NCBI GenBank assembly: GCA_000165345.1
Contig: CM000436.1
Location: forward strand, 992,001 to 1,056,000
DNA length: 64,000 nucleotides
Reading direction: 5' to 3'
In this document: one piece after another, positions 11,923 to 46,813 of the stretch
Layout: each line of letters begins with the position of its first letter
How positions within the stretch are numbered: the stretch's first letter is position 1
Made by a program: the position numbers and the translations under genes
Notes under the pieces: generated by a model
The model's database searches: none
What the model was told of the DNA's origin: nothing
What the model saw: the letters and a program-made list of their open reading frames with translations, nothing else

Positions 11923-12754
11923 AGATTGTTTAAAAATGATTTAAGCCGCGATATTGTATTTTTAGGTCAGTGTAATAATTGACCTTAAATTTCAATCTCT
12001 CGCCTAATTACTTATTGATTTTAATCCCACTTTAAGTAGTAGTCTAATACTTCTTATTTTCTTAATATAATACTTTCCCTATTTTTACTCAAAACCCTAA
12101 TTATGTGTTATTTCACCACATATTAAATCTATCTTATTTAAATCGTTTTTTTTTTTCATTGCTAATCACACAATTTCCGGAGTGAACGGAGACATAGACG
12201 TATCACATTCGTCACATTGACTTTTGGTTATAAAAAAAGTAGTAATTGTGGAAAAAAAGAGAAAGTAGAGGTAAGCAGAGGTTATCTTTGCAAAACATAT
12301 AGGATATATTTAAACATATAAATTAGTAAAATCTCATTTTTCTTTGTATCTTTAGAGCACATCTTTTTAATTTTTTACTTTAAAGTTTTTTACATGTTAT
12401 ATGCACACGTCTATGATTAGATTTTTGTAATAGAGTATTTTATTACAAAAAATAATACATGCATAACTTTGCTTTAAATTCTCAGGCTTTAGTTTTAATA
12501 GAAAATATATTAAGAATTTTCAAATTCTTTTTTTTTTTTTTACATATTTTTTGCAAACTAACAAACTTTAGAGGTTAATTTGGTAGTTAAATTGTGCAGG
12601 CAGAATTGTTTAGCTGCAAATTAGAAAAAATATTTTATTTTGCTGTGTTAATTTTTTTAGTTTAATATTCTAGATTTTTTTCCTCGTCATACATAATCCT
12701 TATATTATCAAAAGCTGTTAGCATACATTTGTTTTTCTAATATCGGTAATCAAC

Positions 12755-12776
12755 CCGCCATGAGTTTTTGGCGGGA
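12755..12776. promoter_or_regulatory. Inverted E2F-like pair CCCGCCATGAGTTTTTGGCGGG about 135 bp upstream of the filamin-like gene's exon 1.
   Basis: Seen in sequence. The same CCCGCCAT.AG.TTTGGCGG architecture recurs at 63377. Confidence 0.55.
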
Positions 12777-12910
12777 ATCGTTTGTGGATGGTCTAATATT
12801 GTGCATGTAATGCAATTTAATGGCTAGTTAATTATATAGAAAAACTAATTAGGAGTATAAGAGCAGTCAAAATACTGGCTAGACAGTAATAGCTTTCTGA
12901 ATGGGAGACT

Positions 12911-15900
12911 ATGAATCTGAATCTTGCAATTGCTAATTTGGGAGTTGAGGTAAGTTTATTTATAAGTAAAATATTCCAAGGAAAGTAATCTTGCAATTGT
13001 TTAACAAAAAAGAAAATTGTTGACATATTGCTTAAATACAAGCTTTCTTATAATATAAAGATATTTATTTATTTACTTTTTTTTTTATTAGGTTTATATT
13101 TCAAGCGTTCGAGAATTTGAGCTTCCAAACAATGATGATTATACAAATAATTCAGTAAATTGTATATGTGTATTGTGGTTGCCATATGAAGATCCATTGG
13201 AAATATTTGGGCTTCAACAAGGTATTAGGTGGGATCCAATTTTAGGAAGAAGATGTACTGGAGTAGCAGTTGCAAGGCCTTGTACAAAACCTGGAAAGTT
13301 GAAATCTCTAGAATGCGATTTTACTACATATATTCATGCACTGAATATTGCAAAAGTAAAATATGTTCATAATAAAGAAATTAATACAGTTTCAAATGAA
13401 TCAGATAGTGAAGAAATCTCTTGCTCTGAAAAATCAATTGGAAAGTGTATTGGAAATGCTAAATTTGAAAATGCCTTAAAATTTTGTGTTGAATTTCCGC
13501 ACAAGCATTACAACAATGCCCAAATTTATGATGGAAAGTATTGCATTTACAACCCTAACTTGGATGAAGTTCATCGCCTCTTATCTCCCGATGAAGATTC
13601 TAAAGAACCTATGCCAATTTTTGTTTCACTGGGGTATATCTCTGAAACTTCACAGAATTCTAGGGTATTTAGGCCAGCTTCAAAGTGGAGGAGGCCGATG
13701 AATGCAATTGGAGATGGAATATATAATTTAGAGAATTCAGATCCAATTAATTGGATTGGAACAGCAGTTATAACAAAGGAAGATTGGATTAGAAGCTATA
13801 CATCTGGGAGAGTATTTCCACTAAAGCTTCTCCCTCATTATCAATTAATGTCTTTGGTTGCAGATTATCGCAAACAAATATTGGATGAAAATAACATAAA
13901 AGAAAAGGAGACAAAGTTGTCCTTCATTAATTCATTAATGAGTGAAATTGAAAAGTTTAAAGTTGACATCTCAAATTCAAGACTAAATGGTGGTGATGCC
14001 AATGCCTCAAATGAAAAATGTGATAATAATTTTGGTACTATTCAAATACAGATTAAAACATTTGTATCATATCCAATAAGAACTGAAGGAGCATTAAAAC
14101 CTCTTGTCACTGTTTATAATCGCCAAGACCTGAAGAATCAATTTTTTTTAGCAAGTCTTTGTTGTGTAGATGTTATTCTTTTAGACGATGTTCCTGCTTG
14201 GAGCGACATTGATATATGGGATATTGCTCATTCTAAAATTCACATTTGTGTAGTATGGAAGCATGAAAGAAGGATTTTGCATCAAGGAGGAAATGCCCTT
14301 GAGTTATTTCCATATAGGTGTGTAAAAATTAATGGTCTTCCAGAAAATATTGAATTTAAAGATATGAAAACAATAAAAGAAAAAAATATAAAAATGAGAT
14401 GTTTATTCTCTGGAAGGGTATTATTAACTCCAGTTCCTGGGAGTGAGCCTGATATATATATATATATGTTATTAAATGGAAAACCATTTTCCTGTATTCG
14501 TGATCCTATTTCTATGAGAAATTTTGACCCAAGTACTTCCAATTATGATAAATATTATGATTTGGATAGGGTTGATTCAAGTGTCGAAAGTGTTATTAAG
14601 GAATTTGAGACAAGAGGAAGATTTTCTGGAACTTTAAAATGTAAAGTAAGTGTTTGGCCAGACAATTCGTGCTTTTTATCAAGAAAAGAATATTCTTACC
14701 TAAATCTTCGTCCTCAAAAAGGAATTGTATATAATATATTGCATGATTATCAAACTAAAATGCCTGATCACTATTCTGCTCCAACTTTAGGACCATATGG
14801 TGTATGGGTAGGATACTCTGTTAATGATAAAAGTGATGAGTTTATTGACTCTAAGAAATTCCAAAATCTATTTGATGAAGCAATTTATCAAATGAATTCT
14901 GCAACACATGAAGAAAAGCAAGTAATACCTATTGAAGATTATTCATATAAAAAAAATGATATTCAAAGTGATAGCGATGAAAACTTTAGTAATGATAAAT
15001 ATCTTATCGATACAAAAATCAATGCAATCGAACAATTGGATCCAGAATATATTGAAGGTGATTTGAAGAGATTTAATCAAGATATAAGATCTTTTAAGCC
15101 TTATGTACCTCACATGAGTACTTTGCTAGGATCTGGAATAAATCCAGGAGTTGCTGGAGAATGGATCACTTTTATAATTCAATCTAGAGATGAAGATGGA
15201 AATAAATCGTGTATTGGAAAGAGTAAAATTCATATTCGTTTAAGATCTGTTGGATACATCAAATATACATTTACGGCTGAACCTTATGGATTAGAATATA
15301 AAAATCCAAATAATGATGCATTAATTAATGTTGATGAAAGTGAAGTATGTAAGGTTGGTGTTGATCAAATTGATGTGCCAATAGAATGGTGTTCTGTTGA
15401 ATCTTATCATGGTGTATATAATTGTAGGATGAGATGTGAGAGATCTGGCCAATATTTATTGAGAGTTACAATGGATGGACTTCCTATTGGAGGATCTCCA
15501 TATGATGTTACTATCACTCCATCAATTCCAGAAGCAAAAGCATCTTCAACCATTGGTGAAGGAACTATTAAATGCAAGGCATGCCCAACAGTTAATTATA
15601 TGATAGATATTGAAGCTATTAAAGCATGTAAAGGTAAAGTTCCTAAGTATATTAATTCTTTTATTGTAATATTATGTGATGAGTTTGGAAATCGTATTTC
15701 TACTGGAGGACACCAATTAAAGGTTAAATGTAATTCAAAAATTGGCAAAATACATGCAATATATGATAATTGGGATGGTTCTTATGTAGTTTATTATACC
15801 ATTCATTTGGAAAAAACAATACAAAATTTTGATCAAAAAATTATAGATAAGATTAATGCAATATGTTATAAGAAAAATAATTCAAATCAGTTAAAAAGTT

Positions 15901-18900
15901 ATTCATATTCTAATCCAACTACTACTACTACTACTACAAGAGCAATCGAACAAGCATTGGGTGTAAGTACCAGGGTAACTAATTCAAAGATTGATTTTAA
16001 TAGTGAGGAGCTTGGTGGATTATTTAATACAAGAAAGTTACAACATATGACAAATTTTGAATATAATGATGAACATTTTTTGGAATCAGAAGAAGTTATT
16101 ATTACAAATATTTGTGATCTAGAAATTAGTGTTTATTTGAATAATAGGCCAATATATGGATCTCCATTTACTCCATATATAGATAATTTGGTAGAAATAC
16201 GAAATTGGTATAGAATTGTGGATTTAAATTCTTCTGATAGTACTGAAAGAAAGTTTGAAAAGTTATTAGAATCTGATGATTTTGAAGGAGCAATAAAGTT
16301 GATGAAAGAGTTAGAAAGAAAATATTTGCATGATTTTAAGGTAATATTAGAAGAATTGGAGAGAGATCCAACAGAACAAGAGCAAATTTTGGATAATGTT
16401 GGAAAGATTTCAAATGAACAAGATCAATGGACTTTGTTACAAAAGAATAAACAACGTTTAGAACAAATTATTAGAGATAATAATGATCGAGAAAATTTGA
16501 TTTTAACATTTGGAAGGTTTTTATTGAAAAGATTAGAGAGTCAAATGATAAGAAGACAAAAAGTTGATTCTGATTTATCATCATATAGAATATTAAAAGA
16601 AAATAATTTGGAACCATTATGTCATAGTTTAGAAGTTGAATATAATAAATTCCAACAACAAAGAACAAGAGAATTAATACGTTTAGTTTCATTATTAGAG
16701 ACAAATAAATTAAATTCATTAGAAGAATTAATGGAATTATATCAATTAATTGCTGATGAATTAAGATCATTAGGACGTGGAAATTTGGCTAATCAATTTG
16801 ATTTAGTTAATAGATGTTTAATAGAAGAGCAACAATTAACAAATATACGTGAAAGTTTACAAAGAAAGAGTGAAGTATTAGCAAAAATGGATGAAATGGT
16901 AACAACTAGAGAGAAAGCATTAGAAATGATTTTATCAAATTATAATCAAGCAATAAAAATGGAAGAGGATCATATTGAAGAAGAAATTGAGAAAATTAAA
17001 GTTGATATTTTAAGAAAACTAAATTTTAATCCAAGTACTGGCGTACAAACTGAGGATTCATTATCATTTACAGATACTATTATTGGACCATTAATATTGG
17101 ATCGAATTTTAGGTAATGATGAAAATCAATCAAAAAATGATTTTAATAATAATAATAATAATCATAATAATTATCATAAGAGTAATTTTAATAAATATTT
17201 TTCTATTATTGATCATAATAATAGTGATTATGCAATTCATGTTATGAAAATGTATTGGAAACCTTTAATGGAATGGGATTTAAAATGTTTTGTTAAGATA
17301 TTAAAACAATGTCCAAGAATATCTATTTGTTTGAGAGAATTATTTTCATATTTTGCAAATACAAGATGGAAGAATAATGAAACACAAATGAGTATATATG
17401 GTGATTTAATTCATAAAAGTGATAATGGTAATTATTATTCATATAAAAATAATAATTTTGGTAATAATAATGAAATAGAAGAAAGTATGAATAATAATAA
17501 TAATATTAATAATAATAATAATAATATTAATAATAATGATAATTTAACATCAATTGATAATAATAATCACAAATTTTCAAATAAAGAAAATATAAAATCA
17601 ATTAGTAAATGGACAGTAGGAACACCACTTGTTACATCAGATGATCCAAATTTAAGTATTTATAGAAAAGCAATGGGTATAACCAGAAATGGATTTAAAA
17701 GATTAATCATTTCATTAAATTTATCACCAGAATTAATTAAATCAGAAAAAACTATTGAAGGATTATTTCATAAATATAGTATGGAAAGAACAACAAGTAA
17801 TATACATTATAGTAATAAAAATGTTAGAGTAATAACACAAGAATTATGGATACCTTTATTAAGAGAATTAGCATATATTAATGCATTAGTACGTTTTGAT
17901 GTATTAAGACAATCAACTTTAGGTAGTAATGCATTATTAAGATTATATAAAAATATTAATGATTTTACAGGAAAAGTTGATTATTCAGTTTGGGAAAATA
18001 ATATATCTAGTACTAATATTGGAGAAAAATTAATGATTAATTTAGAAAGTGATGATTTTAAAGGATTAAGTCAAAATTTAATTAATTCAAAAAATAAAAT
18101 AAATGATGAACAAAATAATCAAAATAATATGAATAAAAATAAAAATAATAATAATAATAATAATAGTAATAATAATAATATAGAATTAGGAGGTAATCAT
18201 AAAAATCATGTATTACAATCAGGAGTTGCAGTAACACAAGATAATATTAAAGATTTAAATAGAGTAACTGCATTTAGACATTTTTGTGAATTACATTTAA
18301 TACCATTATATAAACAAGTTTATGGAAATGAAGATTTTACAACAATGTTAATGTTACCATTTTCTAAAATATTATCATCAGAACAAGATGAATTATTACG
18401 TGGATTAGATGCTATTGATTTAAAAGATAGTGGAGGAACATGTATTAATTCTGAAGAAATTTCTGGAGATAATTCTAATAAAGAATTAATAGAAAATAAG
18501 AAAAGATATTTATCAAGCCAATCAACACATGAAAAGGTTGAATGTAAAATTAATAATTGTTTAAAAATTGTTGTATCACAATTAAAAATGAATATAGCAT
18601 CAGCAATATTTATACAATTAGCATCAAAAAGTATGAAAGAATATGAATTTGATATAACACGTGAATTAGTAGAATTTAAAAGAATATCAAATGATGATGA
18701 TATATTAAAAAATTATTATGTAACAGAATTTGATTATATTAAACCTTTACAATTACATGAATATTTAACAAATATAGGTATGATACCTGGCCATATAAGT
18801 GGTAATGAAATGCATAACGTTGTAGAGAAAGTATTATCATCTAGAGAAGAATATTTACCAAAAGAATTACCAGTTACTTATAAATATCCAAAATCATTAT

Positions 18901-19052
18901 CATTTCCAGGATATATTGAAACTTTATCAATGTGTATAGCTAAAGGTATAGTAAATAAATTATCAGGATCATTATGGAGTGAGGGAGATATAAGAACAGA
19001 AGTTATTGAACATTTGGTATTATTTAATTTATATGATACATCAAGAATATAG
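12911..19052 (+). CDS. Large filamin/ABP280-repeat-containing protein of about 1.97 k aa. Proposed structure is exon 1 12911..12949 (MNLNLAIANLGVE), intron 12950..13091, exon 2 13092..19052. The C-terminal half is Asn-rich.
   Basis: Filamin-type repeat signatures GQYLLRVTMDGLPIGGSPYDVTITP and NRPIYGSPFTPYI. The main ORF is stop-free for 145 codons before its first ATG (13608) and its frame opens exactly at an AG (13090-91) preceded by a poly-T tract. The upstream ATG at 12911 is followed after 13 codons by a GTAAGT donor (12950), and the join is in frame. The ORF-track start at 13173 is a TTG. Confidence 0.65.
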
Positions 19053-30777: not shown

Positions 30778-31188
30778 ATAAATTCAATATAATTAATATT
30801 TATATAAACTTATTGATATATGTATATATATCAATGTAATTCTTACTATTTGTACTTGTATTTAGATTTTCTAATATTGTATATTGAAAGAATATTGAAT
30901 TAAAAATTATTTGTTATTAATATATTTTTTTTTTTAATTAAATTAGTTTCACTTATTCCCGGGTATAGCTAAAATATGAAAATTCTATTAATTCCCCATT
31001 ATTACCCAATAATTAATAAATTTGTAATCGAAAAAAAAAAATATATATATATATATATATACATATTTATATTTATATTTACATTCCCACAATTAATTTT
31101 AAAAAAGTTGGCAAAAAAAGTATATAACAAAATAATTAGCTCATAATACAAATATTTAAGCCATATTATTTAAATCAAATTACTTAAT

Positions 31189-32191
31189 ATGTCTGTATTA
31201 GTTACTGTTGGTACCACCAAATTTGATTTACTAATAAAACAAGTTGATAAAGTAGAATTTCTTGATCAATTTTAGAATTGGATATAATAATTTATGTATT
31301 CAATATGGGAGGTAATGTAAAATTTCAACGCCACGTGTTTTTATTATTTATTGCATGCATGCAATAACAATAAAAACACGTGTATATTACGTAATTGTTA
31401 TTTAAAAAAATAATAATTTTTTTTAGTGGNGAATATGTTCCAATACCAAGAAAAGTTAAACATAGTAAAATTTGTGATAATATTATTGGTAATAATAATG
31501 AGAAATTTCTTGAAATTAAAGCAATACCTTATATGAAAGAGATTATATATTTAAATTATGATCTTATAATAGGTCATGCAGGGGCTGGTACAATACTAAA
31601 TTCTTTAAGAANTAATGTAAGTTTTATTTATTGGATTATATTAATAATAGTCCAATTATATTAAGTTATTCAAGTTAAAAAAANNATTATTTGAAATAAT
31701 GAAATAATTAATTTATTACTATCTTAACAATAAACTTATTTAACTTAAATACTTAGAGAAAAATGATTGTTGTAATAAACAAATCTTTAATGGATAATCA
31801 TCAAGCTGAGTTAGCAACACAACTCGATAATAATAAATATCTTATTGCTATTGATAATGTTAATGATTTAATTAACACAGTAAGTTATCTTAATAATTAT
31901 TAAAAAAATCATTCTAATTTATTAAAAATATTAACAATTTTATTAATTCCTTAATTTCATATTAATTTATATAATATTTCAAACAAACATATAATTTCCA
32001 ATCATCAATTCATTCTTTTACTTATTTTGAAGATTAAAACTATTACATCTATTTCATTTTCATATGATATCCCTAATCAAGATCAAAATACTGTTTCAAC
32101 ATATCTTATTCCTTTTCCCAAAGCTAGTAATACACACTTTAAGGAAGAAATTAATAAATTACTTTCTAATAGAAATATTTGGAAAGATTAA
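31189..32191 (+). CDS. ALG13: ALG13 (UDP-GlcNAc transferase subunit) as a 4-exon gene: exon 1 31189..31316, exon 2 31427..31616, exon 3 31757..31879, exon 4 32033..32191. Exon 1 needs a 1-nt correction in a T-run near 31270-31275, and the ambiguous base at 31430 behaves as an inserted base.
   Basis: Exon 1 gives MSVLVTVGTTKFDLLIKQVDKVEFLDQF(frameshift)LELDIIIYVFNMGGN, matching the ALG13 N-terminus (FVTVGTT.FD.LI...EF.Q.L...G...L.IQ.G.N). Exon 2 gives EYVPIP...YDLIIGHAGAGTILNSLR, matching VISHAGAGS.LE.L. Exon 3 gives RKMIVVINKSLMDNHQAELATQL, matching KPLIVV.N..LMDNHQ.ELA. Introns 2 and 3 have GTAAGT donors at 31617 and 31880, and acceptors at 31755-56 and 32031-32. Stop TAA at 32189-91. Confidence 0.6.
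31332..31382. repeat. Perfect 14-bp inverted repeat CACGTGTTTTTATT / AATAAAAACACGTG flanking TGCATGCATGCA, inside the proposed ALG13 intron 1.
   Basis: Seen in sequence: 31332-31345 is the exact reverse complement of 31369-31382. The AP2-type TGCATGCA element sits at 31352-31363 between two CACGTG boxes. Confidence 0.8.
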
Positions 32192-45362: not shown

Positions 45363-46813
45363 TTAATCTAATGTGTTGATGCTTTCAAGGTTTATTGGCA
45401 TTTTACACTCATCTTGATTATTATGTACTTTGTATTTGTGATCATCTTGATGATTTTCAGATAAAAGATAGCAGGAAATAGCCTTAACAGGAGCGGATAC
45501 ACATAATTTAGGCTTAATTTCATCATTTGAATCTTCTTCATTGATTATTCTTCTTTTAAAACAAAGTTTAAAAACCCCAACATTATTAACTAAAACAATA
45601 AGTATAACCAAACAGCCAAAAAATGCAGCAATAGACATAGATTGACCAATCTTATATACTTCTTTAATAAATTTACTAGAAGCTTCAAGATGCAATACTG
45701 TTAAGCTGTTTGAATCTTGTTCAATATTAATATCTTCTCTAGTAGCTAATTTAATTCTATTAATAGCATTAACAAAGTTTTCATTATTTAAAGATGGATT
45801 AATAAAGTGACCAGAATGTATATTGTACATATAAAAACTTGAATTATGTTTATTAACTTTATTTGGTAAGAAGAATAAAATTAAATCCATAATATGATAT
45901 AAACTAAATTCTTCCGATCTGAATCTAATTAAACGTAAAAGAAATAGAGTAATATCTCCAAGTTTCATTATATGCCAAGTTGCAGTTTTTGGAAAGTCAC
46001 CATGTACTAAAGGAGTATTATTTCCATAAAGTCCAACCTTAACAATTCTTTTATTAGGATCTAAATGTTTATGGAACATCCAAAGTTCTAAATAATCAAC
46101 ATCTAATCTTCCTGATAAATTCAGTTCTGTTATATCTGATGAAGATTTTCCTCTAGTTTTACTGGTTTTCATAATAAATGTATCTTCAATAGGATGCTTA
46201 TCAAGAGTCTGATTATCTAAACTAGTAAAATCTCCTTGATTAGTTTCAAAACAAAGACAATTTCTTCCACATCTTCTTACTGGTGCCTTTTTATATCCTA
46301 ATATACCTTGACTTCTTAATACTAGAAAGAATTGATTGTCATCTAGAAATTCAATTTCATCATTTACTCCTCTTTTATTAAATATTTGATTTCCGGTAAC
46401 ATCAGGTACAGTAATTGGACAAATTAGTATAGATGGTGCTTCAAAATAAGGTTGTATACCAGTTGAGGCTAACATGGATACAAACCATCCAGTTTGAGCA
46501 AAAATAATGAATAATAAGCCGCATATGAAATATAATGGAAACCATACAATAAGTTTAATAAAGAATGCAAAATTCTCAGCTTTTCTTGCTTCAATAGATT
46601 TACCAAATGATCCATCTAAAATAAATAAATAAATATATATATATATATGCAAGTCAATAAAAATTAATTAGAAGATTAAAGAATAACTTTATCATTATAA
46701 TTTAATGATAAAATCTCTATTTCTAAAAACTTACATGGTACTACAAAATTTCGAAATGATGAATAAATACTGATAATTACTTCTTTGATTGTATGTATAA
46801 TCTTGCTAATCAT
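45363..46813 (-). CDS. Two-pass transmembrane protein (TM segments near both termini, large middle domain) of about 440 aa. Proposed structure is exon 1 46735..46813, intron 46616..46734, exon 2 45363..46615.
   Basis: The main ORF is open for 59 codons upstream of its first ATG, and the ORF-track start is TTG. Upstream, ATGATTAGCAAG...GTAGTACCAT|GTAAGT provides ATG 46813 plus a GTAAGT donor (46734-46729 on the minus strand). The poly-Y tract TTATTTATTTATTTTAG acceptor ends at 46616 and joins in frame (…FVVP-Y-GSFGKSIEARK…). TM segments are FAFFIKLIVWFPLYFICGLLFIIF and SIAAFFGCLVILIVLV. Confidence 0.55.

Follow-up and report, generated by a model that had tools for sequence, protein, structure and literature searches.

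A 13-codon first coding exon and a 142-nt intron at the start of the Cryptosporidium parvum FLM1 homologue cgd8_4030

The filamin-repeat gene cgd8_4030 (legacy identifier; CPATCC_004261) on chromosome 8 of Cryptosporidium parvum in all likelihood consists of two exons, with translation starting at the ATG at 12911, a 142-nt intron separating 13 initial codons from the long open frame, and a 1999-aa product homologous to FLM1. We assign a probability of roughly 0.93 to this reading, for which a public gene model already exists. Positions here and below are those of the window, that is, the whole 64,000-nucleotide stretch of DNA that was analysed. Judging from the sequence and its comparison with deposited proteins, the first exon and the intron are real and are part of the current C. 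parvum annotations, and the present result amounts to a correct rediscovery that adds little that is new.

The start codon occupies positions 12911-12913, and the donor that terminates the 13 codons reads GAG|GTAAGT at 12950; on the acceptor side, ten T residues at 13077-13086 are followed by ATTAG|G. The initial annotation had proposed both this arrangement of ATG, 13 codons and GTAAGT, with an in-frame join to 13092, and a poly-T/AG acceptor at the point where the large frame opens, and both are seen in the sequence. The long frame opens with an in-frame TAG stop codon at 13089-13091, the AG being positions 13090-13091; because the acceptor AG is part of this stop codon, exon 2 begins at 13092, in phase 0. 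The resulting junction, 12949|13092, is phase 0 and in frame, whereas reading through the intron leads to a stop after 25 codons. Joining the two exons yields a protein of 1999 aa with the N-terminal sequence MNLNLAIANLGVEVYISSVR. The intron thus combines an extended GT donor, a pyrimidine tract followed by AG, restoration of the frame and a position that is conserved in orthologues, as expected of a GT-AG intron. The description of the first exon as a 39-nt micro-exon is accurate for its coding part, but the term is loose because the first exon also includes a 5' UTR.

Under the proposed model, transcription would start between the E2F-like promoter block at 12767-12793 and the ATG; translation would begin at 12911 and run through 13 codons up to the point where the spliceosome would remove the 142-nt intron (12950-13091), and the reading frame would resume at 13092 for 1986 further codons. 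The predicted 1999-aa product would comprise a C2-like domain, the filamin repeat and a coiled coil.

Table 1. Coordinates, within the window, of the elements of the gene model, of neighbouring signals and of two other intron-containing genes
Feature	Positions	Strand	Remarks
Exon 1, coding part	12911..12949	+	13 codons, MNLNLAIANLGVE; A at position -3
Intron, GT-AG, 142 nt	12950..13091	+	donor GTAAGTTT, T10 tract 13077-13086, acceptor ATTAG
Exon 2	13092..19052	+	1986 codons and stop codon
ATG-less stretch, 173 codons, omitted by the 2004 model	13092..13610	+	most of the predicted N-terminal C2-like domain
First in-frame ATG	13611..13613	+	codon 174 of the open frame, residue 187 of the spliced protein
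Filamin/ABP280 repeat, PF00630	15105..15503	+	Pfam, E 2.7e-15; residues 672-804 of the exon-2 translation
Out-of-frame upstream ATG and 11-codon uORF	12901..12936	+	stop codon 12934-12936; overlaps the main ATG
Antisense ORF, 69 codons, TTG start	12832..13041	-	spurious; interrupted in C. tyzzeri and C. meleagridis
Inverted E2F-like pair	12754..12775	.	CCCGCC 12754-12759, GGCGGG 12770-12775
Putative promoter footprint TTTGGCGGGAATCGTTTGTGGATGGTC	12767..12793	+	conserved in C. ryanae; followed by ATGCAATT at 12810-12817
Alg13-like glycosyltransferase gene, 198 aa	~31187-32191	+	three introns of 115, 140 and 153 nt; unique solution
443-aa gene	45363-46813	-	79-nt first coding exon from ATG 46813; donor GTAAGTTT at 46734

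By themselves, the splice signals are only suggestive, because 2.4% of dinucleotide-shuffled versions of the upstream 500 nt contain a phase-correct ATG followed by an open frame and GTAAGT, and because GTAAGT shows no enrichment across the window (27 observed vs 21 expected). The weight of the case rests on the 173 stop-free codons and on the comparative data rather than on the splice signals. The initial annotation had counted 145 ATG-less codons and placed the first in-frame Met at 13608, as Met146; the actual count is 173, with the first in-frame ATG at 13611, and this miscount led to the case for an upstream exon being understated.

Among the close relatives of C. parvum, namely C. hominis, C. 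tyzzeri and C. meleagridis, exon 1 reads M[N/S]LNLAIANLG[V/I]E, with no change in the ATG, the GTAAG donor or the TTATTAG acceptor. The intron is 142 nt long in C. parvum, 141 nt in C. hominis, 138 nt in C. tyzzeri and 137 nt in C. meleagridis; these length differences of 1, 4 and 5 nt, none of them a multiple of 3, together with the read-through stops, exclude that the intron is coding. The segment 13092-13610 contains no indels among the four species, and 26 of its 47 variable sites fall in third codon positions, comparable to the downstream coding part (52 of 90). Because divergence among these close species at the locus is only 3-12%, the comparison with C. ryanae counts for more. Over the N-terminal 613 residues, the C. 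ryanae protein (KAH8740580.1) shares 55% identity with that of C. parvum, and exon 1 of its gene consists of 19 codons (MNQSEVIDTGLKVASLGVE), ending in ...LGVE|GTGAGT. The C. ryanae intron, of 185 nt and with the acceptor AATAG|TTATAC, is unrelated in sequence to the C. parvum intron and lies at the identical phase-0 codon boundary, before [V/L]YIS. Over the last eight codons of exon 1, the two species differ by four synonymous changes (GCT/GCA, TTG/CTT, GGA/GGT and GTT/GTA), a signature of selection on the protein. The idea of a hidden first exon is thus borne out by the exon and intron being found in four other Cryptosporidium species, as well as by the identity of the product to deposited 1999-aa proteins.

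As an aside on the C. ryanae gene, the deposited model (VHLK02000047.1, 2501-8592) implies 230 nt of intron in total, of which only 185 nt belong to the 5'-end intron, and the C-terminal 30 residues of the model are not matched in other species. These features suggest either a frameshift or a small 3' intron that has been annotated wrongly.

Orthologues were obtained by exact look-ups and by a search of 50%-representative proteins. A homologue search with the N-terminal 613 aa returned no matches, although the collection contains Cryptosporidium relatives, and a profile search with eight sequences retrieved a single 163-aa coccidian-like fragment. In Eimeria, Cyclospora, Toxoplasma, Neospora, Besnoitia and the gregarine Selenidium, only residues 33-99 (CICVLWLPYEDPLEIFGLQQGIRWDPILGRRCTGVAVARP) of the N-terminal query found a counterpart. 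The most conserved motif, WLPYEDPLEIFGLQQG...GRR...ARP, is encoded within 13092-13610, and the motif WLPxEDPLE...QG...GxR of the coccidian and Selenidium homologues lies upstream of Met174. In a multiple alignment, the junction LGVE|VYISSVREFELP corresponds to a continuous segment of alternating hydrophobic residues in the homologues. All six genera possess a continuous equivalent of LGVE|VYISSVREF: the equivalent of this strand is LFDLEISLERVYYEPP in Selenidium (a complete, transcriptome-derived ORF), CCLQLYVGAIRHLEVTP in Cyclospora and ATLRLHIASITNLQTS in Toxoplasma. The structure model of the C2-like domain (residues ~1-300) is of low confidence (mean pLDDT 49); taken with this alignment, LGVE of exon 1 is predicted to begin the first beta-strand of the domain, such that exon 1 is not a dispensable leader. 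A start at Met 13611 removes the most conserved motif of the protein and is predicted to split the C2-like domain.

The intron resembles others in the window. Reconstruction from annotated ranges and product lengths yields four other introns, of 115-153 nt, three of them with the donor GTAAGTTT. The donors of the Alg13-like gene are, in order, GTAATGTA, GTAAGTTT and GTAAGTTA, and the 443-aa gene (45363-46813) contains a 119-nt intron with the acceptor TTTTAG and exon 2 from 46616. The 142-nt intron, with its GTAAGTTT donor and T10ATTAG acceptor, fits this pattern. The published mean for Cryptosporidium introns is ~99 nt, with 22% G+C (PMC4637869).

Two further features of the intron deserve mention. 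An exact 13-nt direct repeat, AATCTTGCAATTG, occurs in exon 1 (12920-12932) and in the intron (12987-12999), 67 nt apart. C. hominis, C. tyzzeri and C. meleagridis have the two copies unchanged, and the repeat is absent from C. ryanae; a rough hand estimate puts the chance expectation of a 13-nt repeat in 500 nt at ~0.01. Furthermore, intron divergence (1.4-5.8%) is about as low as that of coding sequence, compared with 4.1-11.9% in the 988-nt intergenic region, although this contrast is of doubtful significance because it involves few sites and very close species. Given the conservation and the AATCTTGCAATTG copy, the intron could hold a regulatory element. That it is more than a spacer, harbouring an element that affects, for example, the efficiency of splicing, or an internal start that gives rise to a C2-truncated isoform, nevertheless seems to us very unlikely.

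These observations bear on two competing explanations of the locus. The stop-free run of 173 codons, in a segment where the five other frames carry 7-21 stops each, weighs against the single-exon model of 2004, under which the mRNA starts downstream of 13092, translation begins at Met 13611 to yield 1813 aa, and the upstream signals are fortuitous. The same is true of the coding mode of evolution of 13092-13610, which encodes the motif best conserved across Apicomplexa, of the 13 out-of-frame ATGs between 13092 and 13611, which would hinder scanning to 13611, and of the predicted C2-like domain, which such a start would cut mid-way. Although the single-exon product persists in GenBank and RefSeq (EAK89552.1 / XP_627294.1, named 'apicomplexan specific coiled coil protein', matched by exact look-up), one C. 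hominis model (CUV07955.1, 1807 aa) likewise lacks exon 1, and the arrangement of splice signals arises by chance in ~2% of shuffles, all later annotations have dropped this model. The contention of the initial annotation that ORF-based annotation misses the exon is, then, correct for the 2004 C. parvum model and for CUV07955.1, but not for any of the later annotations. We consider the likelihood of the single-exon model to border on the negligible.

The second explanation retains the spliced mRNA as the main form and adds a Met-13611 isoform, lacking the first half of the predicted C2-like domain, that would be produced either from a second promoter in or after the intron or through intron retention. 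Internal transcripts are reportedly frequent in C. parvum (bioRxiv 10.1101/2025.01.17.633476), and both the reduced divergence of the intron relative to the intergenic region and the 13-nt copy of exon 1 sequence, invariant in four species, would be compatible with such a promoter. However, the intron contains no E2F-like or other recognisable promoter motif, neither its sequence nor the repeat is kept in C. ryanae, the contrast in divergence carries the reservation stated above, and translation of the isoform would face the same out-of-frame ATGs ahead of Met 13611. On balance, the coexistence of the two forms appears scarcely probable, and we retain the two-exon gene with a single start at 12911 as the preferred model.

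Within this two-exon model, three other pairs of start and donor were considered, namely ATG 12760 with GT 12784 (GTGGAT), ATG 12788 with GT 12791 (GTCTAA) and ATG 12911 with GT 12944 (GTTGAG). All three were rejected because the donors are poor, because they do not correspond to the annotated junction and because the boundary in C. ryanae is that of 12949|13092. The antisense ORF at 12832-13041 was also rejected as a gene; as the initial annotation had suspected, it is spurious, with only 47 codons left in C. tyzzeri and 40 in C. meleagridis. Separately, the uORF that begins at 12901, 10 nt before the main start, has T at position -3. All three close relatives, C. hominis, C. tyzzeri and C. 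meleagridis, share this ATG, and in the last of them the sequence reads ATG-TAA. This uORF would matter only if the transcript began upstream of 12901, in which case it would lower initiation at 12911.

Around the gene, the window matches GenBank CP141125.1 at 11140 of 11142 positions, and seven products encoded in the window are exact matches to C. parvum proteins, including histidyl-tRNA synthetase, PRP43, a centrin-like protein and a patatin-like hydrolase. Another of the seven is the 783-aa neighbour CPCDC_8g4020, and the identifier cgd8_4030 follows cgd8_4020 in the gene order of a published supplement. The window has a G+C content of 22-38% and tightly packed, long intron-free ORFs, as in the C. 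parvum genome; no tRNA was found in it. A literature search did not find cgd8_4030 in the main text of papers, and one supplement lists only its dN/dS (0.078).

The 1999-aa product is identical, by exact look-up, to QOY40168.1 (CPATCC_004261), WKS79665.1 and WRK34166.1, all of which bear the name 'Filamin/ABP280 repeat containing protein'. The annotated gene range of 6142 nt coincides with 12911-19052 and leaves exactly 142 nt for an intron. The introns of the CPATCC annotation have been stated to have 100% RNA-seq support, a figure that applies to the annotation as a whole and not gene by gene (PMC8744675), and the 2015 re-annotation with RNA-seq raised the fraction of intron-containing genes from 4.3% to 10.8% (PMC4637869). 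Gene models of close species may be copies of one another. A scan of metagenome contigs detected neither the spliced junction nor, as a control, the genomic donor; this collection contains no copy of the locus, and the result is therefore uninformative. The corrected model entered the public record with the RNA-seq-based re-annotations of 2015-2022, while RefSeq XP_627294.1 and UniProt Q5CVH5 are still the 1813-aa version, without the first 186 residues. Because the truncated model lacks half of the predicted C2-like domain and the best-conserved motif, tagging, expression and modelling should make use of the 1999-aa version. With respect to strain variation, an Asn-rich repeat at residues 1386-1399 (~17209-17250) differs in length: compared with the window, the C. 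parvum entry KAL5367146.1 (1992 aa) is shorter by 7 residues of NNNNINNNNNNINN.

Upstream of the gene, the initial annotation had noted an inverted E2F-like pair about 135 bp before the ATG, and such a CCCGCC/GGCGGG pair indeed ends 136 nt before it. The pair is the sole site of this kind in the 988-nt intergenic region that separates the gene from the divergent cgd8_4020. The E2F-like core with its T-rich and A-rich flanks reads TTTTGGCGGGAATC at 12766-12779, and the site is conserved in C. ryanae, where the corresponding block, TTTGGCGGCAACACGTTTGTGGATAGTC ... ATGCAATT, lies at a similar distance from the ATG and the remaining upstream region has diverged. In the window, GGCGGGA occurs 5 times against 0.24 expected, always in intergenic sequence, and all 8 GGCGGG/CCCGCC hexamers fall within the 27% of the window that long ORFs do not cover. 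Among the upstream motifs of C. parvum, E2F-like ones are the most abundant (PMC3734150); they also predominate in open-chromatin peaks, and many of these peaks are bidirectional promoters (bioRxiv 10.1101/2025.01.17.633476). Because the site is unique in the region and the block is kept in C. ryanae, the inverted pair is probably a working, if ordinary, promoter element. Two additional boxes, GTTTGTGGAT(G)GTC (12780-12793) and ATGCAATT (12810-12817), are shared by C. parvum and the distant C. ryanae.

With respect to the protein, a phmmer search of PDB sequences gave a match at E 6e-71 to 9ya0 chain FA, 'FLM1, TGME49_271780', and no match to FLM2 at E < 0.01. Collinear BLASTP blocks link residues 27-83, 356-526, 524-1441 and 1541-1612 of the C. 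parvum protein to residues 838-895, 1167-1336, 1413-2305 and 2316-2386 of the Toxoplasma gondii protein, respectively. On the strength of these matches, the C. parvum protein is a collinear homologue of T. gondii FLM1. A Pfam scan identified one filamin repeat and no conventional actin-binding domain. In Toxoplasma, FLM1 is a filamin-domain protein at the core of the preconoidal ring P2, and FLM1 and FLM2 together form the top of the linkers that lead to ring P3; FLM1 has no conventional actin-binding domain, and lytic growth is lost when it is depleted (PMC12819142). By homology, the C. parvum counterpart is most likely also a structural subunit of this ring, and the link to FLM1 makes a role of the Cryptosporidium gene in the invasion apparatus plausible.

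Taken together, the components of this locus can be compared with several known systems. The proposed gene model does not differ from that of CPATCC_004261, with which it shares the protein, the gene span and the intron. The intron shares its signals and its length with the short GT-AG introns that are found near the 5' end of intron-poor Cryptosporidium genes, with no notable difference. The promoter element resembles the Cryptosporidium E2F/DP-like motif (GGCGGG, TTTGGCGGGAA) in its core, its T/A flanks, its intergenic location and its placement in a divergent, possibly bidirectional, promoter, but differs in that it forms an inverted pair 10 nt apart that is followed by the conserved box GTTTGTGGAT. 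Finally, the C. parvum protein is ~25% identical to T. gondii FLM1 and is collinear with it in the C2-like motif, the second N-terminal block, the filamin region, the coiled coil and the C-terminal blocks; in contrast, FLM1 of T. gondii comprises 2777 aa, with ~790 extra N-terminal residues ahead of its C2-like domain, whereas the C. parvum protein starts with the predicted C2-like domain.
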